A stretch of 64,000 nucleotides of DNA from Harriotta raleighana (taxonomy: Eukaryota), in assembly GCA_050575255.1 (NCBI GenBank), contig JBNZDD010013577.1, forward strand, positions 88,228 to 152,227. Direction: 5' to 3'. Below, piece after piece: positions 5,001 to 55,400 of this stretch. The notes beneath the pieces were generated by a model, which ran no database searches, was not told where the DNA came from, and saw only the letters and a program-made list of their open reading frames with translations. How positions within the stretch are numbered: position 1 is the first letter of the stretch; every line of letters begins with the position of its first letter. The translations under genes and the position numbers were made by a program.

Positions 5001-7292
5001 TTGGACATTCCAGCAGCCAAATCCCCTGCCCCAGCTCTGGCCCTCAAAGACCTGCCGATTAAGTCAAATTTAGTTTCCTGTGAACAGATCGTGACTAGGT
5101 CTCCCTATGACTCTAGTTTATTCAGACCCAACATATTCATAGAATCATAACATGTTAGTTTGTAATCTTTGACTACATCAAAAATTGTTTGTTAGTAACA
5201 CTTTGAAGCATCAACAGTTTTATTTAGTGCAGTACATACCCAACGGAGTATACGCGTGTGTCCAGGCAGACCACACATGACACAACATCACTATGCCTGT
5301 GATCAGAGAAACTTCTCTGGAGGTCAATCACGTGGCCAGATTCCTTCTTCTCGTCCAAAGGAAAGATTCTCAGATGCTTTTTGAAACCACAGATGATTTG
5401 GTGGCGTCGGTGGCAGATTGCCATACAAAATACAGCAGCATTCAGCTGGGAACACAGGAAGGACTTAATCAAATCAAAATTCACTAAAACCAAGGGAAGG
5501 TTTTAAATCTGTTATCACTTACAGTGATATACTGTAATCAGTTACAGCATGCCCAACACAAATTCCTCTCTGTTACTCTATCACAGCCAATACTGTAATA
5601 ATAATAATCCTTGCATTTGATTTAGCGTCTTTTCACATCTTCTAGATGTCTCGAAGTGCTTCACGGAATATACTGTAAAGTGAATTGACTGTATATTTTG
5701 TTGGCAAAACGCAGCAGCCAATTGTGCACAGCAGTGTCCCACAAACAGCCATGGATTGAAATGACCAATTTTTTTTTTTGAGGGATTATTATTATGCCTG
5801 TGGAATAAGGCATAATAATAATCCCTCAAAACAATCAAACCCAAGTCTATCGCTTGCAAGACAAAGTGTTCTAATCAGTGAGCTGCAGCTGAGCTATTTC
5901 TTCACGTAAATATACTTTCATACCATTCCACACAGCATTTGGGATGTAGTCCTTGCAGTTAACTTAAAAGGAACATGTCTAAGTGAAGTGAAAGTTAGGT
6001 GCAGGTCTTACCACAATCCTGTCAAACACAGTGGCTGCTACGTTCCATATCACTAATGTGCCATCGTTGGATGCTGAGAAGAGGAGCTTGGGTTCAGCCC
6101 AGTACAAGAACTGTGTGATTATGCCATTGTGCACCTGGCACACAGAAGTCATTTTTCCAGTCTCTAAATCCCACCATTTAATAACACCGTCTGAAACGGG
6201 GGAAAAACAGAACTCGGAAATGTACTGACCTGGAAAAGATTTGGCTGCTCCCAAAGTGATGAAAACATGTTATTTCCTCATTTCCCTGAATACATTTATG
6301 TGTCAAATAACTAGCTTTCTTGAACTTCACCTCCAAACTCTCACTGTAAAATAATTCAGCATTCCTTCTTTGCTTGATTTTGATATGTTTAGTTGTTTAA
6401 CCTACGGTGTATATTGTCAAAATATCTACACTTACTCCATTACAACTGACCGTGGCAACAATAACAATAACAAAATTACATTTGTACAGCGCCCTTTCAC
6501 GTCGGGAGGAAGTCTCAAGGCAGTGAACTTTTTTAACACATGAGAAGACACGAGTAAGCAAATGTGGTTTATAATGTACATTTGGGTGGAGGGGAATGGG
6601 AGGGTAGGAATCTTTATCTTTCTGTCTTGTAAACATTTCAACTTAATTAACCTCTGTGTTTCCGGGTCAGTGCACTCTGATCTAATCATCCCAGCTCTGA
6701 CTGTAAGATTATGTTCCCATATTTTGGAAAACTCTCTGGAAAGGTAGAATTGACCTCCCGTGTAGCTTGTCAATTCACTTTCTTAGTTTAGAAATCTTAA
6801 TTGGAAACTCTAGAAATTATGAATATAACCAGAGTCTACCCAGCCTCTAGCTGTCAAAACTGTAAATCAATGAAATGCAGAAGTTCATAGAATCATTCAA
6901 TATTGCAGCACAGAACAAGGCCATTCAGCCTATCGTGCCGGCTCTTTAGAAGAACTATCAAATCAGTCCATCTCCCCCACTCTTTCCCCATATCCCTGCA
7001 AATGTTTCCTTTTCAACTACCTATCCAATTCCCTTTTTAGAAGTTGGTAATTGAATCTTTTACCACCGCCCTTTCAAGCAGCGCAGTCCAGATTGTAAAC
7101 AACTCTCTGTAAAAAAAAAAATCTCTTCATCTGGTTCTTCTGCCAAGTATCTTGATAAGTGGTTAGTGATGGTTTCTCAGATTTCTTACCTTCAAAACCT
7201 GTTAGGAACTCTCTGCGTGCTGTGTGGTAGCCCAAGGCACTCACTGACCGGTTGTGGCAGTCTGCGATTGTCAGGTGTTGCTGCATAGACAT
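1995..7292 (-). CDS. Uncharacterised WD40-repeat protein, 5' part (6 coding exons; gene continues left of the window)
   Basis: Exons 7190-7292, 6012-6190, 5240-5445, 3136-3273, 2288-2471 and 1995-2085 join in one open frame with matching phases (1,0,2,2,0). WD40 signatures include FLTGFEDGVIKWWD, LFSASNDGTLVIWN, VYSVGYDKKLVVYE and LVTGSFDRAIKVWS. Confidence 0.88.
2288..2471 (-). CDS. WD40 gene coding exon 5 (LVTGSFDRAIKVWSQDG...DPSSGEI)
   Basis: Acceptor ttcctctgaattcaacag|, donor ATT|GTGAGT; 184 nt. Confidence 0.88.
3136..3273 (-). CDS. WD40 gene coding exon 4 (YDKKLVVYETSS...AHEAGITCLLLVQEHESTR)
   Basis: Acceptor tgttctccattgaaaag|, donor ACG|GTGAGT; 138 nt; phase fits both neighbours. 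Confidence 0.85.
3297..3586 (-). mobile_element. tRNA-derived SINE (Deu-like core, L2-type tail)
   Basis: Head GGAGTCCTGTA..., core ctgctgtgcacgattggctgccgc, tail aagtgcgatatcaaatgcaaggattatt; ends about 24 nt from a WD40 acceptor. Confidence 0.85.
5240..5445 (-). CDS. WD40 gene coding exon 3 (LNAAVFCMAICH...RVYSVG)
   Basis: Acceptor ttcctgtgttcccag|, donor TGG|GTATGT; 206 nt. Confidence 0.88.
6012..6190 (-). CDS. WD40 gene coding exon 2 (DGVIKWWDLETGK...VFDRIV)
   Basis: Acceptor ttttcccccgtttcag|, donor GTG|GTAAGA; 179 nt. Confidence 0.9.
7190..7292 (-). CDS. WD40 gene coding exon 1 (MSMQQHLTIADCHNRSVSALGYHTARREFLTGFE)
   Basis: ATG at 7292 with an in-frame TGA just upstream; donor AAG|GTAAGA; 103 nt, phase 1. 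Confidence 0.85.
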
Positions 7293-8710
7293 TCCACTCG
7301 ATCACTGTGTTTGCGTCCTGCACCAGTAACTCAACCTCAAACTCTTTGAATCCTCCTTAAACCCGTTAAGAATCACTCAGATAATGGAAGCGTAGCTCTT
7401 GTGTTTCTCCAGTGACTCTATTTCAAATAGAAACCCAACTTTGGATATAATAATAATTCTTTTGAAATAACCTTTTTCACCTTGTCTGGACGTCTCAAAG
7501 CACTTCACAGAGTATAATTTAAACTGAATTGACTGTACATTTTGTGGGTGAAACGCGACAGCCAATTGTGCACAGAGATGTCCTGCAAACAGTTGTAGGT
7601 TGAGTGACCAAACTATTTAGGTCAATTAAGGGATTATTACCTCTGGAAAACCAATCCACTAATCGACTAACAAGTGGGTTCCTACTTACTTTTCGGTAAA
7701 CAGTGGCGTGTAACGTAAGAAAACATGCATAACATTTCGTCCTGACTGGCATTGAACCTGGGTCCTCTGGCTTGCGAGGTGAGTGCTCTAAGCTAAAGGA
7801 CTTTTTATAGAATATATATAAGAGAGCTTTGAAAATGCTGCATGGCAATTCTGGTATTTCAGTGCAGAAGTTGAGTTTGGCAGTTTCCAGGATTGTTCAA
7901 CAACATCCTGATTTGTAGGCATGGAAACAAGACGCTAAATCAACCAAAGTCACCAACCCGTGTCTCACTCTGGGTCTTAGTGCCTTTCCTGTTTCTTAGA
8001 AACAACCGATGTAAAAAACAAGTGCCCACCCACCTCTGTACATAAATTAAATGTTTGAAAGAACATTTCACGCTGGGCCTTATGGTCGGAGAAACCAGGG
8101 ATTAACAAGCATTAACATAAAATGATATACAAAAGAATTTAAGAGGAACTACTTCACCCTGAGGGTAGTGAGTTTGTGGAACTCATTGCCTGAAGTGACA
8201 TTGATGGATTAAAAATGATAGGGCCATGATGCCAGGCCCACACTCGGAATGACCCGAGAAAATATACAGTGAATTCATATTGTAGTGTATTCTGTAAAGC
8301 GCTTTGAGCTGTCTCAAGGACATGATAAGGAATATATCAAATGCAAGGATTATTATTATTATTCAATGGTGCATTGGAATATACTGTACGAGAAATCAGG
8401 ACATTTTCTGAGAGCCCTCATGTTCGGCTACCAAGCACCTCCCACAAAATCGCATCCCTATTTTATCTCACAATCCGAAAGCCTAAAGGCGAGCCAGTCT
8501 GCCACTGGGCCCATTACTTATAAATAGAGCATCTGCAAAGTGTGGTTGAATCAAATAGTGTAGATGCATTTCAGAGAAAGCTAGACCTTCACATGGGGGA
8601 GAGGGAAGAGAAGGTTATGGGAGAAAAGAAGGAATGGGTGAAGACCAGTGTGAAGTATAAAACTGAGTGAGATGTTTTCTGTACTGTACAATCTTTATAA
8701 ATCTATGTTT

Positions 8711-8950
8711 GTCCTGTAGCTCAGTGGTTAGAGCACTCACCTCTCAAGCGAGAGACCTGTATTCGATTCCCAGCAGGGCAAAACCTTGAGCAGGTTTTCT
8801 TACTCCACACACCTTTTGATAATTCCATAAGAAAAAAACCAATAATAAATCGGTCACTTCAATCCACAATTGTTTGTGGGACACTGATGTGTGCAATTGG
8901 CTGCCTGGTTTCTCCCCCAAATACAGAGTCAATTCACTTCACAGTATTTT
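8711..8950 (+). mobile_element. tRNA-derived SINE (5' and core)
   Basis: gtcctgTAGCTCAGTGGttagagcactc (A box) ... attcgattccc (B box). Confidence 0.85.
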
Positions 8951-9864
8951 TGCCTTTCACTTCGGAAGGACGTCTCAAGGCGCTGTACAGTAAAGTAGGG
9001 ATCAGAGCAGGGGGGAGGGAAGGGTCAGGGGAAGGTAAGTAGGTAAAATTGACTGTATATTTGTGGGCGAAAATGTGGCAGCCAAAAGCGCACNATTCGA
9101 TTCCCAGCAGGGCAAAACCTCGAGCAGGTTTTCTTACTCCACACACCTGATGATAATTCCATAAGAAAAAAAACAATAATAAATCGGTCACTTCAATCCA
9201 CAATTGTTTGTGGGACACTGATGTGTGCAATTGGCTGCCTGGTTTCTCCCCCAAATACAGAGTCAATTCACTTCACAGTATTTTTGCCTTTCACTTCGGA
9301 AGGACGTCTCAAGGCGCTGTACAGTAAAGTAGGGATCAGAGCAGGGGGGAGGGAAGGGTCAGGGGAAGGTAAGTAGGTAAAATTGACTGTATATTTGTGG
9401 GCGAAAATGTGGCAGCCAAAAGCGCACAGCAGTGTCCCAGAAACAGTCATGGAAGTGCAGTTAGGGGAGAAAGGGGGTAAAGGTGTCAAGGGGAGCAGTT
9501 GAGGTAGGGGGAAGGACAATAGGAAAAAACAACTGTGTATTTGTAGGCGAAAATAATGATATTGCAATAATGATATTGCAATAATCCTTGCAATATCAAA
9601 TGCAAGGATTATTATTATAATTATATTTAGACTTGTGTGTCCTAAACGTCGAATCTCTGAACCTGTGCCTGCCACCAGGAGGGAAGAAAAACACTTTCCC
9701 AGTGTTTGCCCACGTGCAGTGAGATTTATTATTGGAGGCTGTTTGCTCGGGCTGCTCTCAACGTGTACAGTTCCTCTGATAACGTCACTGCACTGTTTGC
9801 CCTGTGTTGCAAAGCACATCACAACTAATACATCTGTATTTGTAGGCTGCACGACTTTCCAACC

Positions 9865-9927
9865 ATGCTGGGTGATCACTGCGTCCAAGTGAAGCACTTT
9901 TATCAATCAACGGAGAAAATTACAAAG
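9865..9927 (+). CDS. Candidate first coding exon of a long RGS14 isoform (MLGDHCVQVKHFYQSTEKITK)
   Basis: aaccATG start, strong donor AAG|GTAAGA, phase 0, in non-repeat sequence; no homology support. Confidence 0.35.
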
Positions 9928-12900
9928 GTAAGAGCAGCATTAAGTATATCCTCTCTGGGTTTTACAGAAGCCAAAAAAGGTTTCATTTGTAGCATGGTTA
10001 GCAGTGGTATTTTAAGCAAATATGCAGTATCTAGCGCTGAGGATTCAAAGGTCCACCTGACAAACATTTATCTGGCTGAAGTGAATTGCTCTTTTGCATT
10101 TGCTAGAACAACCTTCAAGAAAGGAAAACAATAATAAATTGGTCATTTCAATCCACAACTGTTTGTGGGACACTGCTGTGTGCAATTGCCTGCTGCATTT
10201 TGCCCACAAATATACAGTCAATTCACATTACAGTACATTCTGTGAAGCGCTTTGAGACGTCTAGAAGATGTGAAAAGCGCTATACCAAATACAAGGACTA
10301 TTATTAGGTGGTGTTTTCTGTTTTTTCTTTTTAACAAAATGCATTTTGCATTTTTGTGAAACATTAATGATGGAGGTAAGCGGCCAGGATAGGCATCAAC
10401 TGCTGGTTATGGAGGATTGTGGAATAGATCTCATGGCAGGTGTTATATCCATTATTTGCTTCTACAAAAGTAGAACAAGTTTCTGCTTTAGATGGCTGTC
10501 CTCCCACTCCCCCGGCTTGGAGTCATCCACCATTGTCAAGCGCTGTGGGATGCTACCCTGCGTGAGATGCACTATATAAATGCAAGTTGTTGTTGTTGTT
10601 GTTGAACGGGATTGGGCTAGGTACAGATTCCGATGGAAAATTGTTCTTTGGGGGCACAAGAGTTCCATCTTCCATTCATCACTAGGAAAATCATTTACTT
10701 TTTACAATGGGATTTCCATTATAGCGAGTTAACTATTTTAAGCAATCGGTTTTCAACACCCAATTGAGTTCCGTGGTGTCAGTGGTTAAATATAGGGAAG
10801 GAAATCGTAAGATGAAGTTAGATCAAGTAAGTGATTTTGGATATACATAGATATGAATATTGCAGTAATTGCTAATTTATGAGCAATGCAATCAGTAAAT
10901 CAAAATCACAAAATATTACATTCCAATAAATAATGTTTCTGCTTTGCTATTCAAATTGTCAGACTGAATTCTCATTCATTTACATACATTGTATTTTTCA
11001 TAATACAAACCAAAGTTTCAAGAATATAAAATAACCACAGAACTGGGACTAAAAGCACGTTGTTTTAATGCTAATGTTTCATTTTGTAAAGTTCTATAGC
11101 TGAGTGGTGTGGTGTCCTGTAGTTCGCACTTCGTAAGTGAGAGACCTGGATTCAATTCCCAGCAGGGTGAAACCATGGGAAAGTTTCCTTACTCCAAATG
11201 CCTGATAAAAATCTCCAAATAATTTTTTAAAAGAAAAATAAATAATAATAATTTGGGCACTCAATCCACAAATGTTGTGGGATACTGTTCTGCATAATTG
11301 TCTGCCATATTTCCCCCACAAATATACAGTCACTACACTTTACAGTATATACTGTGAAGCGCTTTGAGACATCTAGCAGACGTGAAATGTGCTATATCAA
11401 ATGCAAAGATTTTAAAAATATTATTTTTCCTCTCCACTTCATCTTAAAAAAATTTAATTAAATTTTAAAAAAAGTTTTTATTGTTGTTGTTTTTGTTATT
11501 ATCAAAAACAACAAAATTGCATTTGTAGGACCTCTTTCATGTCGGGAAGATGTCCCAAGGCTCTGAACTGTCAGGGGTCAGGACCAGAGCATAGGGGTGC
11601 AGGGTTGGAATGAGTGAGGGCGGAGAGTTAGGGAAGCGGGTGAAGGCACGCATATCATATTGATATGTCTGAAACTGCTTCACATTCTTGGTAATAAATA
11701 TGACTGTGTATTTGGAGTGAATGAATAATTATGATGCATACACTCAGATTTGTGGATAGAAGAGATTTTTGGGGGTGAATAGGGTTTTACCCATTGCCCC
11801 ACTTTCTCTTCCCCCTTCTCACCATCAAGAGAAGGCGACTTTACCCTTCCATTCCTTACACCATGACATCTTGAGCAATTGAATGGGCCTGTCTCACCTG
11901 GCAAGAACTGAAGGCAGTTCTATATTCCCGTTTCTCCGCTACTCTTTGATCCTCTTGCAGATCAAACTCCTCATATCTGGACCCTGTCCCATCCTGATCA
12001 CAGCCAATAGAGGGCCAAAGGCAAAACATTCCTGTCAGTCCCCACGTCCCTATCACGTGGAGGTACAGGTTGTCCGATTCCTACATCTGGACTTCAAAGA
12101 CTTTGTGAGGTATAACACCTAACAAGTAATTGAAAAGGCACTTGGCCTCAGCCAAAAAGTCAAGAAGTGAAGAATTAAAAAGGGGAAGTTGGGAGAGGCT
12201 GCCTGTTTATATACATTGTCTGTGATGTTAAAGGTATGGAATGTGACAAGGAAGTTTAGGGGACTGGGGAAAGGTAACGTAAGTCACTGATTGGCTGCTA
12301 TAGGATAGAAAAGACTGGAGCAGGACGCCTGGTGACTGACCAGCACCTGGTCAAAGTGACCAGTCTTGTGGAAGGGCAAAGTCAGACAACAACAACAAAG
12401 TTACACTTGTATAGTGGCTTTCACGTCAGGAGGACGTCCTAGGGCGCTGAAAATTATAGGCTCAAGTCCCATGTTGGGACTTTGAACTCAAGAACTGACA
12501 TACCAGTGCTGCACTGTTGTCCCGCTGACGAGATATTCACCAAGGTATCGACTGCCAGTTCAGATGGATGCGAAAGACCATGCACTGTTTGAGAAGAGTC
12601 TCTCCAGGTGTGTTGGCCAACATTCCTCTAGATAAAGGTGACCCATATTAGTACTCCCTACTATGTCACTTCCTTTATAGTCTGTGTGTGCAGGAAGTGT
12701 CACTGATGTCACTTTGTTTGTGAAGTATCATCCTCGGTGATGTTCGCACAAAGCCAGGGAGCCATGTTCCTCGCTGAAGTTGGCCCACAATGGAGCCTAC
12801 AGTCCTGTACACAAGCAGTGAGGGCACTCTAACAGAGCTCTTCTCCTGTAATGACAAACAATGGAAAATCTTAATGCTTCCTAATTTGTTTTGCCTTATG

Positions 12901-15900
12901 CATTAGCCAGTTTTAAATAAACACAACTAGTAAATTGCACTCAGGATTTTTGCTGCAAGCAGTTCCCTAGCTACACAGATAATGATAGCACTTGGGGGAA
13001 ATTCAGATTAGCCTGACGTGGGCAAGATTATTGCTATGGCAGCCACATTATGTAAACAGGGAGTGATTTAGCTGGTCCACATGCTAACCACACATTTTTG
13101 TTGTGGTTCATGTTAACAAGGTTTTTTTCAGCACAGGAACACAGGAACACTTGCATTTAAATGGTGTCTTTTATGTAGGATAACACCTCACAATATTTTA
13201 CAAAGAAGTGAATCACCAAGCTAGGAAGCAGCAATAGGGTTTTTCAGGATGTTGATCAAAATGCAGTCAGAGAGGCAGGTTTTTGAAAGAGTTTTCAGAC
13301 TAGAAGAGAAGGATCGAGATGAAGGGATATTGTGCAAGAGTCTCAGAAAGCAAGGGATTAAGGCTGTAAACTTGGTCATCAATGTTAGGACATAGTGGGG
13401 AGGGCAAGGAGTAGCAAGCCTGCGGCAACAACAACTTGTATTTATAGAACACTCCTCACTCACGGTAGTCGCTCGGAGTTTTGTAGTTGAACAAAGAGGA
13501 TTGATGTGCTGGCAGAAGATTGAGCCCAGTAAGGATGAGGTGTAGTAGGTATGTAGAGCTTGGTGGGGGAGAGGATATGGGCAAGTGTTCAGTATGGGCT
13601 GGAGTTTGTAGAGGGTTGGAGTGAGGATGTTTGGTTGGAGTATGTTTTCCATGAAATCTCATCTTGAATTAACAAGTGCAATGCCAGCTACCCATAGTTA
13701 CAATCCTGGTAGTTATAAACTCGGGATTCCATATGATAACGGTGCTCCCAAATCCCAGGATTTATGGAAGAGTATTTAGGGAATGTAAACTACTTTTTAA
13801 AAAAAGCAGCAAGGTTTCTTTCTGCTCATCGCTGTGTTTTATTTCTATCTCTCTTTCTCTCTATTTTTTTCTTGAGTAATTTCTGTAGAAAAGCAGCAAA
13901 ATCATTGACTACTTCCAACATTGGGAACCAACATCTTTTAGATGTGATTCTAAACAGCATTCTTGTCTGTCTGTTCAGGTCGACGCTAAACATCTGAGGC
14001 ACTATTCAAAATGACAGGCGAGTTTTTCCGCAGTGTCCTGACCAACAACCCTCTGAATAAAATTGGTCAACCACTTCATGGCTGTTTGTAGGTCATTGCT
14101 TTGTGAAGAGTGGCTGATCATCTACAATTTGCACAGTCACTATCCCTTCCAATAAATTCTATGAAGCACTTTGAGACATTTAGATAATGTGATAAGATAT
14201 TATATCATATACAAGCATTTAAAGAATACAATAGTAATCCTTGTATTTGATACAGAGCCTTATTACAACATTGAGATGCCTCAAAGCGTTCACAGAATAT
14301 GCTGTAAAGTGAAGTGAGGGTATATTTTGTGGATGAAACCCAGCAGCCAATTGTGCACAGCAGTGACTCCCAAACAGTCATTTATCCTTTATAACTTCTC
14401 ATTCTTTTCAGACACAGACAATCTGGGGGGTGGGGGTTGAACAGGAACAAGTGAGGTTTCTGCTCATTTTGAAGCTGAGTTGGACTGGACAGACTGGACT
14501 GCTGTACACCTGACAACAGACCAATTGTCAATGAGAGTGAACTGATGGAATGTGATCGGTGATGTCCTTGCACTATGAGTAGAGAGTTATACGGTTTTTG
14601 TGCCTTGCTGTGGAGAGCTTTGCCTGTTACTTCCTAGTTTAAGAACAGCTGCAGGGCTCACTAACATTGCATGTTTTTGTTGGTTACGAAACAATAATCA
14701 TCCCTGAGATGGTATGTCAGTGTTCTGGCTCACAGTTCATTTGTTCGTCTGTGTGTAAGATAATCTTAGGGTGGAATACAATGTGACACCTTAAAAATGG
14801 TTGGTTGGTTAGTGCTGCCAAACAACTAGGTCAGAAGCTCACAATTCATTCTCTTTTGAGTTAGCTAATCTCAACCAGGGTAGTACAGGGTAGTGCCACA
14901 CTTGACTTCAACAACAATAACAATTACACTTGCATAGTGTCTAGGTGGTTAGGACTAAGAGGGCTGAAGAGTGGGGAGAGTAGGGATAAGAGGGTGACTG
15001 AAGGCACGGTTAAACAGGAGGGTCATGAGATGGGTCTTGAAGGAGGTAAGGCAGGGGGCGAGCTGGAGTTCTAATGGGTGGGGACAGAGAGGCTGACTTA
15101 AGCCACTGTGGGTGGGCTAGGCAGGAGTAAAATTATCCTGGGCTTTGGATCCCTATCCCTCCACTGGAAATTGTGGATGTCCATTAAACTCAGGATCAGC
15201 CTTAGCTTTGGAGCCCACTTCTGGCCAAATACTTTGCAGATACTCACCATGGAGATTTGAATAATGGGCTCGTTGGTATGGAATTCAACACCTTCAGAAG
15301 ACAGTTGGGGGCCAAAAATAATGATAGAATAGATGCTATGGACAGTAGAAATTTGACAATTTGAGAACTATCTGGTCTTGATGATCCATCCATCAATTTC
15401 AATTTATCCTAAACTCCTCTGCATAGTCTCAGCCTTTGCCAGGCTCCACTATCTCCCATTAGATCAATTCTAGGGGTCTTCATCGCCAGAATCCTTCCAT
15501 ACTTTAGCACCTTAATATCTCTCTGACGTTTTCCTACGTCATACTCTCTGTTCATCTTCTCTGCCTGGCTAAGTCAGGCTTGCTGCACAACCCGCCCTAT
15601 CCAGGCAATCATCAGTGGCGAAGCTTTCAGTTTCTACTTCCCCAAACTTTGTAATTCACCCATTTTGGCCCCTCTTTATCCTCAAGTCTAATAATAATCC
15701 CACATATATACAGTCGATTCACTTTCTACAGTATATTCTGTGAAGCGCTTTGAGACGTCTAGAAGACGTGAAAACGCGATATCAAATGCAAGGATTATTA
15801 TTATTAACATAAGTCTCGTCTAAAAACTACCTTTTCTAACATGGCTACAACTTGTATTTACATAACATCCTTCACGCGGGGTAGGTTCCCAGAATGCTAT

Positions 15901-16539
15901 CACTATGGTCATCTGCCCCATCACCTCCCCTCTCTCCTACCTCATCATTGTGAAGCATTGGACATGTTAACCAAAGTGAAGGACGCTCTAAAAATGAAAG
16001 TTGTTGTTGTGTTACAAAATGAGTGATTGGCCCAAAATGAGTGGGAGTTCCATCCCGATCATGTCTGCACCTGCCAGCAGGTCAGGATCACACAGCATAG
16101 TGAGGCAGGGGTGGAGAAGGAGGTTGGTGACCTGTAACTTCCTGCATTTCATCCCAGTATAAAAGGACAAGCCGCAATATTCAATTACATATATTTATGA
16201 GTCAGTCAGACAAAAAATTAATGGTTAGACAAATTATTTTTTGTAATTTGGTGTGCCCTGGGTTGTTTTGTACATTAGATCTAAAAGTCTCTTATTCACT
16301 TAGAGTGGAAATGAGAAGTTTCCTGTGCTATGAATCTACAGAGGCTGGTTTCTGCTGTTCTGTGGTGCCTGCACAGCTGGGCGGGTCTGTCTGCCACTAC
16401 TGTTTCTCCTCTAATGTTGTGTCTGACTTTTGTGTAATAAATTGAATATTCCTGTTGTACCTCTTTGGTTTTGGTTCCTGTAACAACAGAAGACCTTTGT
16501 TTGTACTGGTTTTTATAACAACTGTTTCCTCTCCAACAG

Positions 16540-16659
16540 AGGACTGGGCAATTTAAGGAACTACCAAAGCGGTTTGGGCAGGAATTCCAGCGCTCCCCCT
16601 GCCACAGGAGGCTGGGCAGAGCAAAGGCGTTTGGTGGCAATCCACTGGAGAAGCTGGAG
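16540..16659 (+). CDS. Putative upstream alternative RGS14 exon, RGS12-like (RTGQFKELPKRFGQEFQRSPCHRRLGRAKAFGGNPLEKLE)
   Basis: tgtttcctctccaacag| ... GAG|GTGAGC; 120 nt, open, phase 0/0; resembles recalled RGS12 QRTSARRSFGRSKRFSITRSLDDLE, which precedes SATVSDGE. Confidence 0.65.
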
Positions 16660-22381: not shown

Positions 22382-22420
22382 ATGGCAGGAAAAACAAAAT
22401 GCATGGTGAATGGGCGTTTG
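22382..22420 (+). CDS. RGS14: RGS14 canonical coding exon 1 ([13 protein letters not shown])
   Basis: gacATGG start, donor TTG|GTGAGT, 39 nt phase 0; resembles MPGKPKHLGVPNGRM. Confidence 0.8.
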
Positions 22421-40400: not shown

Positions 40401-43400
40401 AATGCCTCATCAACTCTGAGTTAACGGGTCCAGGGAATTATCACAGGCATCTAACAGGTCAACTAAGTGATGTTTCACAACAGGAGTGATCACATTGAGT
40501 TTCTTGTGAAATATTGCAATTTTACACATACTCTATTTTGTGCTCTGAGACAGAATTGGTGGGAGACTTGCAGATCTGAATTCTAGCATGAGAGCACAAA
40601 TGCTTTAAAATTATTTTAAATGCAAAATATAATGGGCTTTTAGTTGCTGCAGTTACGTTTATGAATATCTCTCACCTTTGCCTTTGTTCTCTTGCAGGCC
40701 ATGGCTGTTTCTGATGGAGGTTAGTATTGAAAACCTGTGTGATGTCGATGGAAATGATCTGTGGTAGGATTGAGTGTTGACAGCAGTAATGTTTACATGA
40801 AAAATGGTGAATTTATTGGTTGACTGCTAAATTTAAGAGAACAATAAGCATTATTATTATCTGAAGATATAACCTCAGCCTGTAGTGTACCATTCTGCTG
40901 CACATCTGATTTCCAATAAGATTGGCAGGGGTTTAAATTCATGGGCAACTGGCACCAACATTGGGGAAGACAGGAGCTAATCCAAAGGAATGGGCTCCAC
41001 CTCAATAGGGCTGGGACAAATGTCCTGGCTACGCAAATAAATAGGGAGGTAGAAAGGACTTTAAACTACTAAGGGGGGGGAAGATAAAAACATGGTCAGG
41101 TATAGTCCATCACAGTTAAACTTGGGATCGACCAAAGTGGGAGAGCAGATTAACAAGGGAGAAGAGCAAAGTGTGTCAAGCAGGGAAAGGAAGTGATAAG
41201 GTGCTGGGGAATAGGGCTAATAGCCGGAAGTCAGAATTAAGGGCGCAATATCTGAATGCACGAAGCATTCGAACAAAATAGATGAATTAAATGCGCAAAT
41301 AGAGACAACCGGTGTGATCTAGTAGACATCACTGAGACATGGTTACAGGGTGATCAAGGATGGGAACTAAATATTCCCGGGTACATAGTATAGGAAAGAT
41401 AGGCAATGTGGTAAACAAGGAGGGGGAGGGGCTGGGGGTGGCCCTGCTAATAAAGGATGTGATAAAAACAGTAGAGAGGAAAGATTTTAAATCTGAAAAG
41501 CAAAATGTAGAGTCAGTATGGGTAGAGGTACGTAACTTCAAGGGGCAGAAAACTANNNNNNNNNNNNNNNNNNNNNNNNNNNNNNNNNNNNNNNNNNNNN
41601 NNNNNNNNNNNNNNNNNNNNNNNNNNNNNNNNNNNNNNNNNNNNNNNNNNNNNNNNNNNNNNNNNNNNNNNNNNNNNNNNNNNNNNNNNNNNNNNNNNNN
41701 NNNNNNNNNNNNNNNNNNNNNNNNNNNNNNNNNNNNNNNNNNNNNNNNNNNNNNNNNNNNNNNNNNNNNNNNNNNNNNNNNNNNNNNNNNNNNNNNNNNN
41801 NNNNNNNNNNNNNNNNNNNNNNNNNNNNNNNNNNNNNNNNNNNNNNNNNNNNNNNNNNNNNNNNNNNNNNNNNNNNNNNNNNNNNNNNNNNNNNNNNNNN
41901 NNNNNNNNNNNNNNNNNNNNNNNNNNNNNNNNNNNNNNNNNNNNNNNNNNNNNNNNNNNNNNNNNNNNNNNNNNNNNNNNNNNNNNNNNNNNNNNNNNNN
42001 NNNNNNNNNNNNNNNNNNNNNNNNNNNNNNNNNNNNNNNNNNNNNNNNNNNNNNNNNNNNNNNNNNNNNNNNNNNNNNNNNNNNNNNNNNNNNNNNNNNN
42101 NNNNNNNNNNNNNNNNNNNNNNNNNNNNNNNNNNNNNNGGGGGATCTTATTGAAACATATAAGATTCTTAAAGGGCTGGATAAAGTAGACACTTGAGGGA
42201 CTGTTTCCCCTAGTAGGAGAATCTATAACTGGTCCCAGTCACAGTGATTGGTCACAGTCTTAAAATTAAGGGTCAGCCTTTTAGAATAGAGTTGAGGAAA
42301 CATTTCTTCACTCAGAGGGTAGTGAATTTATGGAATTCACTACCCCAGAAGGCTGTAGATGCTCATTCCTTGAACATTTTCAAGGCTGAGATTGATAGAT
42401 TTTTTAAAAATAGAGGGATTAGGGGATATGGAGATGGTTCAGCTAATTAGAGTTAGGTCATAAGATCAGCCATGATCTTATTGAATGGTGGGACAGGCTT
42501 GAATGGCCTACCTACTCCTGCTCCTATTTCTTATGTTCTTATTCCCTTGACCACTGGCTCAGTTCCCACATCAGAAATCATGTAGTCTAATGTTAGGGGT
42601 GCACTGCATTGTTGGATGTGGTGTCCTTCAGATGAGGACACTAGTTTGCTTGTTCAGGTGTTTGCTAAAGGTACCATAATAATAATTATTATAATCCTTG
42701 CATTTGATATAGTGCTTTTCACATCTTCTAGATGTCTCAAAGCGCTTCACAGAATATACTGTAAAGTGCAATGAGTGTGCATTCTGTGAGTGAAATGTAG
42801 AAGCCAACTGCAAACAACAGTGTCCCACAGACAATAGTGGATTGAATTGACCAATTTTTCTCAAAAAATTTTTGAGGGACTGTTATCATGCTTGTGGAGT
42901 AAGGAAGCTTCCCCAAGGTTTTGCCCTGCCTGGAATTAAACCCAGGTCACTCGCTTGCAAGGCAAGTGCTCTAACCATTGAGCTACAGGACTCCCATGGC
43001 ACCTTGTGAAAACAGTAGGGAGTTTCATTCAAATGTTGAACCCAGCATGCTCACAAGGCTCTACAGATTATTTAGTAGTTATTATTTTGAGTTTCAAACT
43101 TTGCGAGACTGGGCTGACAGTACTAAGGTGGGACAAACAGCTTATGTCAAGGTGTGAACCATGTTTAAAGGTGGTTACAAAACACAGCATGGCAGTATGG
43201 CTTTCCACTTGTCTAGTTTGAATTCAATTTGTCTACTGTGGGTGGGGCTCACACCCATCTAGGGAAGTACCTCTAAGGCTGTGTGGTTTCAGGCTACTAA
43301 AGACTCCTCTTGTTAGCCCCTCACTGCGCTTTGTAGATTCAATATGAGAGCTTGGCCACTGAATTATAACTGTCTTGTCAAACGCTCTGTATAAATTGTG

Positions 43401-46400
43401 TCACTAAAACTAACTTCAAGGCCTGAATTTTTGCTCTCTGATAACTAGAGATGTTGTACTCTTATAATGGTGAGATCACAAAAGAGATTTGGAAGCAGAA
43501 GGCACTTTGACCCATTTGCCTTGTTTAATCTTAATCTTTCAGAATAACTCATATTGTCATTGAGGAATAATGAGCAGTACATAGTAGTTTTTCAGAATGA
43601 TAGTATTTTATTGTTAAAAATAGATTTCTTCGTAAATGACATGTTATGAAAAAACAAATGATCTTCTCTGATGCAAATGGAGATACTGTTTACAACAGCA
43701 ACAGCAAATTGCACAGCGCCTTTCATGTCAGGATGACATCCCAAAGACACTGGACAGTCAAGGATCTGCATCCAATCCCGGTTGGGATCCGACAGGGCGT
43801 GTGGGGGGAGAAGGTGTAGGAAGGTGACCAAAGGCACAGTCAAAGAGGAGAATCATGAAGGAGGCATGTGAATCCTAATCCAAATCCTGAGAAGTTTACC
43901 ACAAGAGTAGAACATTATTTTGCTGCAGTTAGTGTGTTAGGCCCAGCATTTCCTCCTTGCTGAAGAATATTCGCAGGATCTTTTAAATCCAGGTGAACAG
44001 GCAGATGAGACCTCAGTTTATAATAATAATAATCCTTGCATTTGAGATAGCACTTTTCACGTGTCAGAGAGCTTCACAGAATATACCGTAAAGTGAATTG
44101 ACTGTATATTTGTGGGTGAAATAACAATAAAATTACGTTTATAGAGCGCCTTTCACATCGGGAGGACATCCCAAGGCCCCGAACAGGATGGTTTGGAGTA
44201 GGGGCAGGGGGAAGGAGAGTAGGAAAGGGGGGAAAGTTAGGAGGGGAGCAGAAGGCATCATCAAAGAGCAAGGTCTTGAGACTTGGCAGCCAATTGCGCC
44301 CAGCGGTGTCCCACAAATAGTTGTGGATTGAAATGACCAATTTTATCATCTCATCCAAAAAGAACGGCATCTTCAACATTGCAGAGCACTTCCAGCACTG
44401 CATTGGAGTACCAGCTCACACTGAACACAATAGAGACACCTGCAGCTGGCCACTTTCATCGCTGCTCCCAGCAGCCAAATAACCAATGATGGCAATTTTC
44501 CATCCTGCGTGTGTATGAGACAGTTTCTTTGCCCCCAGATAATAATAATGTTATCCTGGCTGTCAGGAATGTTGATATTGAATAGAAACTAGAGATGACA
44601 CCAGCACCAATCTATCAATGCCAATTATTTACTTTATGTAGGGCACCTATGTGTATGTGTACATACATTGACACAGGGTACTTAATGAATCACGCTGAAT
44701 GAAGTGATACTGACTATTACCTGTTTGGGATCAGTCACTTCCGTGTATTATTTATGCGTGGGAGAAAGAGAGAAAGCAGAAGTCATTTGAGAACTCTGAA
44801 AGTCTGCGTGCTGAACATGCTGGCGTACACTTCACTGATCATGTTTAATTTAAGACGTTTAGGATTCTTCAAAGTCCGAGGTAGTTTTACAAAGTCTGGT
44901 GAGTGTCAGTTTGTGTGCTTACTGTAGATTGTAGAAGTCGATAGCTTGGGAATATTATATAATCAATACAATAGAAATTGACAATTATATAGCATCTTTC
45001 ATATTGGAAAGCTGTCACAAGGTGCTGGACGCTCTAAAGTTTGCACCTAAGCAAGGTGAAGGTGGGTTGTGGGTGGGGGGACGGTTAAATGGCTGAAGGT
45101 GCGGTCCAAGAGGAAGATTTTGAGACAAACTTTGAAGCAAGCCGAGGGAAGGCGTTGAGTCAAAGATGGTTCAGGAAGAAGTTCCAGAGGGTGGTGGCAG
45201 ATACCTGGAAAGCTTGACTGCCAATGATGAGGTGGGCAGCATAGGGGCTATGAAGCAGGCTGGTACCCGCTGAGCAGAGGGAGATGCCATATTGGTAGGG
45301 TGTGAGGTGGTTGCAGACATAGGATGAAGCAAGACCATGGCGGGAGTTTAAGGGTAAGACGAGGGTATGGAACTTGAATGCTTTCTATGTTCATTTGGGA
45401 GAACAAATTAAGTTCCGAGCTAATGAGTGCTTGATTATTGATAGCTATGGTTCTTATATATTCAGAAAGTTTTTATAATAATAATCCTTATGTTTGATAT
45501 AGAATCTTATCAAATTGTTTGAATGTTTGAAAGCGCTTCACAGTACTGTACATAATAGTCAACTATTTTACCAAGTTGTCAGCTTGGCTCAGTGGTAGTT
45601 AACTTGTTGTGTTCTGTTGTTGGAGGTGCTGTCCTTCAGATGAGACGATAAACCAAGATCCCACCTGCCTGTTCATGTGTACATTAAAAATCCGAAGATA
45701 CTATTCGAAAAGAGGACGGAGTTTATTCCACTATCCTGGCCAACAATCTCCTAAATAAAATTGGTCACTCAGGTCATGGCTTGTTTGCACAATTGGGCTG
45801 CTGTGTTTGTCTACCATTACAGTCAATCCATTTCACAGTAAATCCTAGAATGTGCTGTGAGTTCCCCTTTAAATGTGATCAGATGCTATATCAAATGCAA
45901 ACATTATTGTTATTATTATCGGTTTAATATCTCATCCAAAGGAAGGGACCACTCAAAATTTAGAGCTTCCCTGGAACTCTATTGGAGTGTAGTTTTAGTC
46001 TATGAATTTAAATTCTGTCGTGGAATCAAATTTTGACAGAAAATTATTCCACTTTATTAGTGTAGGCAAGATTAGAGTTAACAGGTGCCAAGCCTCACTA
46101 TAAGTTCTAGGAGCTCCCAGGTCCATCCCTATCGCATTTAGTGCTATATTGAGACGTCCTCCTGACGTGAAAGACACTATACAAGTGTAATTTTGTTGTT
46201 GTATATAGTGGAATGATTAAAATACCTTTCAGACATCAAATCATTTGTTTAAGTGTTGAATAGTCAGGGAACTGTATTATCTGCTGCTCTTTAGTTGGAT
46301 CCATTTGTATGGTCCATTTAGTGTGGGTGATGGCAGGGAGGGAAGAGGTCATGAGAATAAGAACATCTTGCTATTTCTTCTTGATGCTGATATGGGATAT

Positions 46401-49400: not shown

Positions 49401-52400
49401 GGATAGAACTGAAATCAACTTACCGATCATTGTACCTTTTCTGAGTGATTGATGACATTAAAATCTATTTGCCTTACGATAGAGAGGGGATATTAAAGAA
49501 TCAATCTTATGCTTTGATTTCGAAGTAAAATGCTTTTCCTTGTACATTTGCCTTCCTCCTTTGGATTTATCTAAAATTCTAATAAATTGGCTTCTCATCC
49601 ACTTGTAGTTTGTAGGACATCACGGGCACAATTAGCTGTTGTGTTTATACTGTACCTCCTTAACACCATCTATTTAATTTCCAGTGAATCACTGTTTGTA
49701 AGGGACTTTGAGGCTTTTTTTTGTGTAGGTGTATGCAAGTTGTTAGTCTGGAATCCTATGACTTTCAGTAAGTAACCAAAAAAAAAACAACAAAACCAAT
49801 TTACGGTTTACGGAGTGTTTATAATGATAAGATAACATGATAGTCACACATTTGATTTGATTTGGCATTTGATTGTTCCTATTTAACATACCCACTTCTG
49901 CTTGTATAGCAATGTTTCACATGATGTGTGGTCTCAATCTTGCAGTTGCTCTAAAATGTGGATCCACCGGGTAACTCAGTTGAGATTTTTGGGACCTTTC
50001 CTTTGCTATTTGAATTCTAGTATGTCCACTCAGCCCTTTTTTGGAATATGTACAGTCAGTAAAGATGTATAAACATGGAAGGTGAGACTCAAAGTCTCAT
50101 GAGTCAATATACTGTAACACACAGGAGTTTGTTTCTTTTACAAATAGAATTTACCTTGTGAGGTAAACTAGATTGATATCAACAACAACAATCAAATTAT
50201 ATTGATAGAGTGCCTTTAATGTTGAGAGGACATTCGAAGGCGCTGAACAGTTAGATCGGAACCCAACTGGCGGGGAGGGGGGGCGAGGGGGAAGGGTCAG
50301 TGTAGGGGCGGGGGGAAGGAGAGTAGGAAATGGGGGAGAGTTAAGAGGGCAGCAGAATGCACGGTCAAAGAGGAAGGTCTTGAGACCAGCCTTGAAGGAG
50401 GAAAGTGAGGAAGTGAGACAAAGGGATGGCGGGATGGGGTTCCAGAGAGTAGGGGCAGAGAGGCTGAAAGGTTTGGGCATGGTACATGGAGCAGGCCAGA
50501 GCCCACTGAACTGGAGACGGGCGAGGGTGGGAGTGATGTGATCGTGGATCCTAGTGCAGGAGAGTACACGAGCTGCAGAGTTCTGAATAATCTGCAGCTT
50601 GTGAAGGGAGGAGTTTCGAATGCTGAAGAGGAGAGAGAGTTCCCATAATCGAGTCTAGATGTGATGAATGGGGATTTAAAATAAGCCTACTTAACATTAA
50701 ACCTTGGGCAAGTTTTTTTGCTCCACATGCCTAATAATAATCCCTCAAAAAAAGCAATAATAAATTGATCATTTCAATCCGCGACTGTATGTGGGACACT
50801 GCTGTCCGCAATTGGCTGCTGCGTATTGCCCACATATATACAGTCAATTCACTTTATAGTATCAAACAAAACACAAAATACTACGGATACTGGGAGTTTG
50901 AAACAAAAACAGAAGTTGCTGGGGAAACTCAGCAGGTCAGGCAGCATCCATGGAGAAAGGAAAGTGATTCAACGTTTCGGGTCCAAGACCCTTCGTCAGG
51001 GTCACTTTCACATTTACTCACTTTCCTTTCTCCATGGATTCTGCCTGACCTGCTGAGTTTCCCCAGCAACTTCTGTTTTTGTTTCACTTTCTAGTATATT
51101 CTGTGAAGCGTTTTGAGATGTCTAGATGACATTAAAAGGCGCTATATTAAATGCAAATATTATTATTATTATTATGCTGATGGTATACACTGAAAATATG
51201 TTGGACCTGTTAGGTATACAGTATAATGTTTACAATACATATCAAATGTACTATATCAAATGCAAGGATTATGTCCCACATGTAAACTTCTTGTATGCAT
51301 AGAGTAAAAACTGCTGTATTCCTAAACCTGCTCTGTTTGTTTTTTAAGGCCTGGATGAGTCAAACATTTCTGTAAACCTTCTTTTGTTATTTGTAAATGT
51401 GGAACTTGGCCTCTCTGATCTTATTCTTGGGAAACCCCCGTATAACTCACATTATGTTAGAGCAGTATCCCCTGGATGAACTCTGAAATTTTCAGTCAAC
51501 TAAATAATCCAAAGTAAACTGATATACAAGCAAAATTCAGGGTGTGGCTGTCATGTTTGGGCACCACCAATATTCAGATATTGGAGAGGGGTTGGTAATA
51601 CAAAACAAATTTTAAAATGTTAACCTACATAGCGAAGTGANATATTGGAGATTTTGTTGGTAATACAAAACAAATTTTAAAATGTTAACCTACATAGCGA
51701 AGTGAATGTGTTTGGGAATTTTAATCCTCATTCTCTGTATTGGTACACCTTTTCATTCGAACTCTGTAACTCATAGAGACTGTTATATTGATATTGGATA
51801 ACTATAAAGGATCTGTTTTTCACAGAGTTGAACATCACTGAGGTGGAAGGGTATGTGAGCGAGCAGGTGGTGAACATCAATGCCAGTTTGCCCAGTGTCC
51901 AGAGCAATGAGTGCTATATTGAGAGAGCGGTGGCCAGCTGGGCAGTGTCCTTTGAAAGACTTCTACAGGACCCCATTGGTGTCAAGTATTTCACTGTGAG
52001 TATTGAATGCTGGAGTCCAGCATTGTCATGCTTTGATCTCCAGAAGAGTTCTGTTCATCATTACTGTCACAAGTGCTCTAGATACATCTATGTGTTGAGG
52101 AGACAAAAACAAGAGAGGGCATGGAACCCATTACATCATTATCAGTTACATAATTTTTTTGTTGCATCATTATCAGTGGTGTTTGACACTAACCAAGACA
52201 AATAATCCTCAATAGTAACAAGAACTTGCAGCCTCTTTCATGTGAAGTAATATCTCAAAGCACTTGAGAAACCTAATTGTGGCAACAAATAGAGAAATTA
52301 GAGATTTAACACTATTGATGAAAGGTCTAAACTGTTTTATTTGGTGATATGTTGCTTTGGTAGAAACTCATTTCTCTTCAAAGTGCAATATTTGAAATTG

Positions 52401-55400
52401 TGCTAACTATTATAATGACAATAAATTATGTCTAGTTTGGGAAATAAGGATTTTCATGTTAAAACGATTCAGGCAGGAACATTTATCTGCTAGCAAGGAA
52501 ATTATATACAAAATACTCAATTGCTAAATTTTACAGTGAATCCTGTTTGCGATGCCATCCTGAGGTTAAAACTGGTCTATTTATTGTCTCTCTCTTTTTC
52601 AGGCATTTTTAAAAAAAGAATTTAGCGCAGAAAACATTCTGTTCTGGCAGGCCTGCGAGTCCTTTCAGCAGATCCCAGCAAGTGACTCAAAGCAAGTAAG
52701 TCTCTAAGTGCCTTCACCAAAAGATTAATTAACGACTGGAACAGGGTATCAGGAAAGGTGGTTGAGGCCAGACACTGAACTCTTTTTTTTTAAAAAACTT
52801 GATGCTGTGAGGTGGATAGGGAATGTTAAGGTGAGTGATCTGGAAGTAAGAAATGAGATGGGCCGATAGGCCTTCTTCATCCAAACCAATCTTGTGATAA
52901 GTGCAATGATTGACTTTTTCCCAATAAATATGATGAAGAGTTTGGTGATAAAATTAATAATTGCTGCAGTTCGTGTTTAATGTGAGCATTCCTAGCTTCC
53001 CATGAAACTGCTGTAATACCTGCTTGGCCAATGTTCACAATGGCCCAGTGCTTGCTCTAACTTTAATTGTGTTCACCTTTGGTACCGGTGAACAGCTATC
53101 TGTTTTGTCAGTTTGAAATCTTTTCTTTCCTTCTGTTTCTAGAATTAGTTTCTGGGCTGGATCCATTTAGCAGTTGCAAAACTTCACATTTTCCCCAGAC
53201 CAGAACATTTTATTTTGTGCTTGAAATTGAGACAAGTCAGCGTATTACAGCAGATTTAGTATTACTGAAAGCTGTGGTGATTTGATTATTTGTTCACTGC
53301 ACGTTCTTTCTCTTTCTCACCTTCTCTCTCTGTATACAGCTTGCAGAGGTAGCTCGGGAGATCTTTAACACCTACCTGTCCAGTAGTTCTCTGAGCCCCA
53401 TCAACATTGACAAGCAAGCTCAGCTGGAGGAGGATGTACTGAACTCACCCACTTCAGACATGTTTAAGGCACAACAACTTCAGGTATTGTCTGTCGGTCC
53501 CAGCCATACTTAAGATTTCTAACCCAATCTCTAGAAGCCATTACATGGAGAGACAGTCTCTTCACAGAATAGCATTCAACAAAGCTTTTAGTTTGTTTCT
53601 GAAGACATGTTGTGTTCGAAATGTGAATTGCGTCTCTAGTATTTGATGTGATGACAACAATGACAGCTGGCTTGTCTCCTTCCCCCTAATAATGAAGACA
53701 ATTATTTCTCAAATATTTAGTTGGGTTATGATCAAATACAGGATATACAAATGATTGAAATCAGACCTAATGGATTTGGATGGTGAAGTGACAATATCTT
53801 TGGGTCGTATTGTTTGTGTCTACATCATGTTCTCACTCCAAGTCCTAGTGACTATGAACATTCGAAGATCAGGGGAAGTGGTCAATCAAACCCAAAAGCA
53901 GAAAAGGCACATGTGACATATCACAGTGTGGTCACAATTATCTCACATCAGGATAAATAGTTGAAGAGAAACAATGTAAGAAATCGGGATGGGAAAGAAC
54001 AGAGAATTGGAATTGGATTGTGTAACTCAATTGAAGTTATATGCTGTACTGTAATTGGAAGAAAGTATATAGCTCCATTACAACAGAGCAAATGGCCTTC
54101 TACTGTGGGTCATGTCTATGGTACATCTGCTTATCCTCTTGTCATATGATCTTTATCTCTGGGAGAGAATTCCATGCTCTGAAAGGAACGATCCTTATTG
54201 TTTGGGGTTTGTGCCCAGTCAAAGTGATCTCACAAATTACACCAAAACACTTGGTGTTTAGTATTTTAGTATTAGTAAAATACTCTTGATTTATTGAATC
54301 CCACAAGCTTCAATATATAGTATATATATTCCCATATTTAGAGCATTCGACACAAGCATGCCCATAATCCTTTTACAGCAATTGATAATATTATATCAAT
54401 ATAACTTTAACAAGGTCTAATACAGTATACCATACTTTAAGATATCTAGTGACTGAGCCTCAATACTTGGGCCACCAGGGATAAACAAATAGAGTAACCT
54501 TACACCAAATTCACATCTCCTCAAAGTTCCTGAGATTCAGAGTTTTATAATTAGTAATGTTAGAGTCAAGTGTTAAAATTCCAAACCTTGACAGCTCCCG
54601 TATAACTCCACTCTAGGATCTTGAATTCGATCCACTGGGGGATGGGGATCCAATGGAGCTGGGCATGGGTGGGTGTGATGGGGTGGCGGAGTCTGGTGCG
54701 GGAGAAGACACGAGCTACAGAGTTCTGGATGATCTGCAGCTTGTGAAGGAAAGAGCTGGGAAGGGAAGGCCGATGAGTGGGAAGTTTCCGTAGTCAAGAA
54801 TTCATTGGTGAGGGTCTCTTTAAGCGCTCTGAGACGCCGTCCGGCATGGAGAGCACTAAATAAATTGAAGTTGTTGTTGTTGTTGTCTCGGAAGCCTGAT
54901 GGGTGAGGCAGTGGCGGAGTCTGGCAATTTTACAAAGGCGGTGGAAGGCAGTGCTTGGTGATGACAAGGATGTGGGGAAGGAAGGACAGTTCAGGGACAA
55001 ACAAGACTCAGGTTCTTGAATGGCTTTGTTAGTTGGAGATTGCAGCCGTGGAGGCTGATGTGGCCAGCGCCTGAGGTGCGGAGGTGCTGACGCAAGCCAA
55101 ACAGGAGGGCTACAGTCTTGCTGACATTCAGCTAAGGAAAATTATCCCTCATCCAGGGCTCAATCTTAAAGTATGTAACAGACCATGTAATTCCGAACAT
55201 CTGTGCCTCTCTCCCTGAATCCAAACACTCACCACATTAACCGCTTACTACCATACACCCTGTTATTGTCATTGAGTCACTGTTATAATGACAGACAAAC
55301 AGCATTATTAATGGCTATTTGTTTGTAGATCTTCAACCTGATGAAGTTTGACAGCTACGCCCGTTTTGCAAGGTCCCCACTTTACCAACAATGCATGTTG

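Follow-up and report, generated by a model that had tools for sequence, protein, structure and literature searches.

An upstream coding exon of RGS14 in the chimaera-like fish Harriotta raleighana and its probable homology to the RGS12 exon that precedes the microexon

Canonical mammalian RGS14 begins with a short first exon and has the microexon and core in common with the gene described here. The locus raises the question of whether RGS14 of some vertebrates keeps, upstream of that short start, a coding exon inherited from the common ancestor of RGS12 and RGS14, and of what the resulting protein would look like. We analyzed a 64,000-nt stretch of the H. raleighana assembly, hereafter the window, that contains a candidate exon of this kind at positions 16540 to 16659 of the plus strand. 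Overall, the exon is real, ancient, and modest. We think it quite likely that the locus as a whole is explained by an exon of the ancestral RGS12/14 gene that follows an upstream ATG exon and leads into the microexon, giving a basic, aromatic N terminus of 61 residues that likely serves to localize the protein.

The exon and the long isoform are already present in automated RefSeq models and are not new as annotation. We found no description of a long fish RGS14 isoform or of a link to RGS12 in the literature within our coverage, which excludes most subscription journals, and the accessible portion of a review (PMC12017852) mentions neither a long RGS14 form nor the RGS12 link.

The RGS14 locus and its upstream exons

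The core exons of the gene (51826 to 63255, plus strand) encode the RGS domain, the linker, the first Ras-binding domain (RBD), and the start of the second, and match RGS14 of the elephant shark Callorhinchus milii (C. milii) at 69 to 91% by tblastn. The gene continues beyond the window, so that the RGS and RBD regions are covered by window exons and the GoLoco motif lies outside; the C. milii protein contains RGS, tandem RBD, and GoLoco matches in Pfam without PDZ or PTB. In a tree of 31 rows, the 17 RGS14 rows form one side of a branch with 100/100 support, and the window sequence falls inside this group as sister to C. milii (100/99). The core-exon match and the tree together therefore identify the window gene as RGS14 of a chimaera-like fish. 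At 58473 and 58476, two acceptors in tandem with a spacing of three bases match a one-residue difference between C. milii isoforms X1 and X2.

The upstream exon is preceded by AG and followed by GTGAGC, is open in frame 0 for 40 codons (120 nt, phase 0/0), and encodes a basic and aromatic peptide. The canonical short first exon, whose coding portion spans 22382 to 22420 on the plus strand (13 codons with a phase-0 donor) and matches the start of C. milii isoform X3, lies 5,723 nt downstream. The open phase-0/0 exon about 5.7 kb upstream, as originally predicted, is borne out by a splice-site scan of positions 9928 to 40690, in which matrices trained on sites of the same gene (10 acceptors and 9 donors, with this exon left out) were applied to all open phase-0/0 AG-GT pairs of 45 to 300 nt, and its pair ranks first of 876. 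Taken singly, its acceptor ranks 25th of 1,865 AG dinucleotides and its donor 9th of 1,731 GT dinucleotides. The acceptor score of 7.8 is good but not outstanding relative to the training sites (6.2 to 15.1), and a stricter, hand-made scan did not pick this acceptor up.

The original prediction was right about this exon and overlooked its ATG-bearing partner, a 21-codon first coding exon at 9865 to 9927 (plus strand) with a strong, Kozak-like start context and a phase-0 donor, GTAAGA. Nineteen of its 21 residues are identical to residues 1 to 21 of C. milii RGS14 isoform X1. The same isoform is the sole match, among six candidates, when the 40-aa exon peptide is used as a query (35 of 40 residues identical, 88% over the full length), and all seven residues of the 22-nt microexon (40698 to 40719, plus strand), which starts in phase 0 and is common to the long and short isoforms, are identical as well. 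Joined, the three window exons give 68 codons without a stop, 61 of them identical to C. milii, so the predicted junction with the microexon keeps the frame. Because the first coding exon lies at 9865 to 9927, the long form has a 61-aa start in place of the 13-aa start.

The exon does occur in the longer RefSeq models, as expected of a long RGS14 isoform, but that isoform starts at 9865 and is merely 48 aa longer; in C. milii the two forms are 780 and 732 aa. The C. milii cluster has five members, three with the segment, X3 with the short start, and one fragment. Isoforms X1 (XP_042195943.1) and X2, together with XP_007889710.1, have the same two upstream exons and the same junctions as the window, differing by species-level substitutions only, and are automated RefSeq predictions. 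This supports the reading, drawn from sequence comparison, that the exon is a conserved coding exon of RGS14 used in a longer isoform.

Under this reading a promoter near 9.8 kb would replace the one at 22.4 kb, and the transcript would take up both upstream exons through splices from 9927 to 16540 and from 16659 to 40698, skipping the short first exon at 22382 to 22420. The frame is seen in the window itself and the splicing is predicted from RefSeq models of relatives; we regard the upstream promoter and frame-keeping splicing, taken jointly, as very likely.

The gene appears to have a third alternative first exon, at 44817 to 44898 on the plus strand, which runs from an ATG to a phase-1 donor compatible with the exon at 51826. 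It lies downstream of the microexon, is strongly basic and aromatic, and matches the N terminus of Heterodontus RGS14 isoform X1 (67% over 24 aa, E = 4e-10); it is also present in Heptranchias models, and no such exon occurs in the five C. milii cluster members examined.

On the minus strand, several candidate exons between 2288 and 6190 belong to a WD40-repeat gene, with Pfam WD40/beta-propeller matches for 5979 to 6269. Open minus-strand stretches near 7190 to 7370 and 11900 to 12030 might be further exons of this neighbor, in which case the RGS14 ATG exon would sit within one of its introns. We also note an assembly gap of N at about 41560 to 42140, within a retroelement-like stretch, and local tandem duplications at 8700 to 9380 and 60250 to 60790, each joined at a single N, which may be assembly artifacts.

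Relationship to RGS12

The segment before the microexon in RGS12, which we take to be RGS12 exon 3, adjoins the microexon on its 5' side just as the exon segment does in RGS14 proteins. The RGS12 junction peptide cited in the original prediction agrees with the corresponding junction of a bonobo RGS12 record (P0094). From 96 RGS12-type records, 87 gave 40 residues before the microexon, and the 67 unique peptides were used to build a profile hidden Markov model (HMM). Against this HMM the window peptide scores 8.2 bits, a value equaled or exceeded by 4 of 2,000 shuffles, and the gar RGS14 peptide scores 18.1 bits (0 of 2,000, as also for sturgeon). Eight of nine RGS14 peptides have at most 4 of 2,000 shuffles scoring as high, the Chanos peptide giving no signal (843 of 2,000). 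In pairwise comparisons of the window peptide, the number of shuffles scoring as high, out of 5,000, was 1 for shark RGS12, 2 for gecko, 3 for a teleost, 22 for bonobo, and 63 for a bird. Alignment of the RGS14 and RGS12 exon alignments with hhalign gave a probability of 94.7 (E = 6.4e-8), and a fish-only RGS14 alignment gave 89.9 (E = 1.7e-6). Four read-through peptides of teleost RGS12b contain Q, 40 residues, and V, which is the pattern of a 120-nt phase-0/0 exon with boundaries inferred from protein.

The exon might nevertheless be real and unrelated to RGS12, its likeness reflecting basic composition. Blind searches that start from RGS12 fit this alternative, in that they do not find the exon: when the window is split into 2,174 six-frame segments, the RGS12 HMM places it 4th (E = 0.63, not significant), and tblastn with five RGS12 proteins gives no match to it. 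An HMM built from seven fish RGS14 peptides alone ranks it 1st of the 2,174 (E = 0.013). A composition effect is hard to reconcile with scores that beat composition-preserving shuffles, with the agreement in position, phase, and length, with the gar and sturgeon peptides, which bridge both genes at 0 of 2,000 shuffles each, and with hagfish and lamprey, where a similar segment in the same place has 38 and 15 of 2,000 shuffles scoring as high. It is already largely refuted, and we consider it improbable. Taken as a set, the shared position, phase, and length and the bridging gar peptide make homology with the RGS12 exon at this junction highly likely. The proposed alignment to RGS12 accordingly stands at the profile-profile and shuffle level, but not in the blind search of the window.

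The suggestion that the exon is a remnant of the RGS12/14 ancestor's long N terminus is upheld as to homology, but not as to a PDZ/PTB extension. A PDZ/PTB profile built from 14 RGS12 N termini found neither domain in the 64,000-nt window (best E = 2.8) nor in 87 RGS14 records (best E = 1.3; records were searched by name and included proteins of up to 1,365 aa). In Pfam searches, two RGS12 proteins contain both domains, and C. milii and gar RGS14 contain neither. The only N-terminal tblastn match of the five RGS12 proteins to the window is weak (E = 0.86), lies on the minus strand, and was rejected. A PDZ/PTB exon farther upstream, which the original prediction had suggested looking for, is thus absent from the window and from the 87 records, and the isoform starts at 9865. 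We also considered whether the exon at 9865 to 9927 derives from the terminal part of the RGS12 PDZ-PTB exon and rejected this, as 197 to 1,999 of 2,000 shuffles score as high.

An RGS12-like, full-length RGS14 would be expected if the exon at 9865 were internal and a complete PDZ-PTB exon preceded the window. Such an arrangement would suit the acceptor at 9846, which is weak (score 5.5), has a branch-point-like motif, and is followed by an open frame up to the ATG. We consider it very improbable given the profile results above, the strong ATG context at 9865, the WD40 gene on the other strand at 2.3 to 6.2 kb, and the observation that every long RGS14 record begins 6 to 50 residues before the exon. 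We hold it very likely that PDZ and PTB are not part of the long RGS14 isoform. The acceptor at 9846 lies 19 nt before the ATG, and a further, noncoding exon may lie upstream.

RGS14 would then correspond to an RGS12-like gene minus the PDZ-PTB exon, with this exon and the internal starts kept. The two genes share the homologous pre-microexon exon, an alternative internal start that skips it, and the RGS-RBD-RBD-GoLoco core, but in RGS12 the exon follows some 620 residues that include PDZ and PTB, and in RGS14 it follows 21 unrelated residues. The cut that separated RGS14 from its RGS12-like ancestor would accordingly lie upstream of this exon and not at the microexon. By analogy, the multiple starts of RGS14 mirror the arrangement of RGS12, whose short form from residue 667, RGS12(667-1447), is described in excerpts of PMC12919419 as arranged like RGS14. 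As far as the accessible text of PMC9581478 goes, RGS12 localization changes with the choice of N terminus, and the mouse short form (Rgs12-204) persists when exons 2 and 3 are deleted, and its localization at junctions is lost.

Distribution of the segment among vertebrates

Sequence comparison indicates that the long isoform is not special to cartilaginous fishes, being found in gar, sturgeon, and teleosts and probably in amphibians. An N-terminal region search, of which the best 120 of 341 matches were examined, recovered ray-finned RGS14 with an equivalent segment of 41 to 42 residues in gar, Hoplias, Colossoma, Conger, Chanos, Xyrauchen, and Salmo. Cluster representatives searched with a profile yielded 93 matches, 23 of them RGS14-like, and four of these have the segment: an eel-like fish, a sturgeon (whose record bears an unverified flag from its source), the frog Pelodytes, and axolotl, where three of five models include it. 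A search with the gar N terminus matched gar itself alone (1 of 41 candidates).

The long models of gar (XP_006632025.3), teleosts, Pelodytes (KAM8972027.1), and axolotl (XP_069507637.1) all consist of a short first peptide, a basic segment of 40 to 42 residues, and the microexon, and in gar and axolotl short RGS14 isoforms coexist with them. The first peptides of gar, teleosts, and amphibians have no significant relation to that of the chimaera (at best, 76 of 2,000 shuffles score as high). The Pelodytes and axolotl segments have diverged much from the chimaera segment, with 26 to 28 of 2,000 shuffles scoring as high against the RGS12 HMM and 223 to 482 of 2,000 against a fish/chimaera HMM. 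Because these scores are weak, the amphibian match rests mainly on position, length, and composition, and we describe the segment as probably present in amphibian RGS14.

In other chondrichthyans the expected conservation of the exon holds for C. milii (35 of 40 residues), but not in annotated shark and ray RGS14, where 0 of 40 protein records (as opposed to genomes) have the segment. At the protein level gar RGS14 has the segment, as anticipated, but the partial coelacanth record does not. It is also absent from the single Pyxicephalus record, from the one mammalian RGS14 record (rabbit, P0250), and from all four lungfish records, and no reptile or bird RGS14 was identified among the records examined.

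Hagfish and lamprey RGS12/14-like records have the similar segment noted above behind a short N terminus. Four RGS12-type and cyclostome records (P0089, P0182, P0269, and P0202) lack PDZ/PTB and have their start at this exon or a short distance ahead of it, the first of these, Cebus RGS12 X3, right at the exon. These four records suggest that the ancestral gene may already have had a start upstream of the exon.

Properties and putative role of the segment

The segment has no Pfam family, and no solved structure extends over it, since PDB sequences cover only the start of the RGS region. All 21 segment peptides have a net charge of +4 to +10. We computed a basic-hydrophobic score in 19-residue windows with the threshold of 0.6 given in the accessible part of PMC6960411 and scale values taken from general background; this score is largely a count of K and R and does not distinguish lipid binding from nuclear import. 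It ranges from 0.61 to 0.91 in all 18 stored proteins, with C. milii at 0.61; the window peptide, at 0.58, falls below the threshold, and the short RGS14 starts score 0.26 to 0.33 (3 of 3). Specific positions (F, R, RR, GR, and L) show little or no variation among chimaera, fish RGS14, and RGS12 sequences. An amphipathic helix was rejected, the hydrophobic moment of the segment peptides not being consistently above that of shuffles, as was a conserved PKA-type site, since the window peptide lacks the KR-x-S motif of six of seven RGS12 peptides.

Mammalian RGS14 reaches the membrane via G-alpha-i, according to excerpts of PMC8268017. We tentatively propose that the segment is most likely a putative electrostatic membrane tag, although we hold this at less than even confidence: it would bind acidic membrane lipids and place the G-alpha-i GAP/GDI scaffold at membranes without G-alpha-i. 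In RGS12, lipid binding maps to residues 9 to 406, outside the pre-microexon segment, in the available text of PMC6691989.

The same exon and isoform could instead supply a nuclear import or retention signal that shifts the balance of RGS14 shuttling. The titles of two studies by Chatterjee and Fisher (2000 and 2002) reportedly tie RGS12 splice forms to nuclear targeting, and these studies may map signals to the pre-microexon RGS12 exon. RGS14 does shuttle through the nucleus, with three or more presumed nuclear localization signals (NLS) as well as an NES, and RGS12 also enters the nucleus (both from the accessible part of PMC5608220); most fish peptides contain arginine clusters. The window and C. 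milii peptides, however, lack a three-basic run or a KR-x-KR pattern by simple pattern search, and the conserved aromatic positions would better fit a lipid or protein interface than a plain NLS, which makes a nuclear signal rather unlikely in our judgment. A docking or autoinhibitory motif retained from the ancestor, which might engage calmodulin, a kinase, or an acidic surface of the protein itself, would account for the near invariance of F, R, RR, GR, and L, which is more than charge alone needs, and sites of this type can bind proteins rather than lipid, as stated in excerpts of PMC6960411. Such a motif has neither a Pfam family nor a structure to its credit, and the KR-x-S of most RGS12 peptides is missing from the window peptide; we consider it unlikely. 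The probability left over after the membrane, nuclear, and docking readings falls to a segment without function.

Returning to the membrane tag, a broader version, which we regard as possible though doubtful, is that RGS12 and RGS14 share one exon as a so far unrecognized ancestral targeting module that is older than jawed vertebrates and would allow membrane placement without G-alpha-i. RGS14 would then have retained the exon under a promoter of its own in chimaeras, ray-finned fishes, and amphibians, with independent losses in mammals and in sharks and rays, and the 40 residues before position 667 of human RGS12, which have no assigned role, would be a functional module. As a 40-residue segment whose conservation extends from hagfish and lamprey to RGS12 of mammals, and outside any Pfam family, it is a candidate functional module. 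The N-terminal form present in fish and amphibian RGS14 lies outside mammalian studies; if it does bring RGS14 to membranes without G-alpha-i, zebrafish and amphibian RGS14 biology would rest on an isoform that mammals lack. The weight of these points is limited, as the isoform is already annotated, adds 48 residues, and contains a segment whose role is putative.

The peptide of the third first exon has a basic-hydrophobic score of 0.85 in Heterodontus. Other alternative starts in RGS12 and cyclostome homologues (P0125, P0193, P0266, and P0232) are likewise basic and aromatic, with scores of 0.44 to 0.66, which gives a hint that the exchange of charged N-terminal tags may be habitual in this family.
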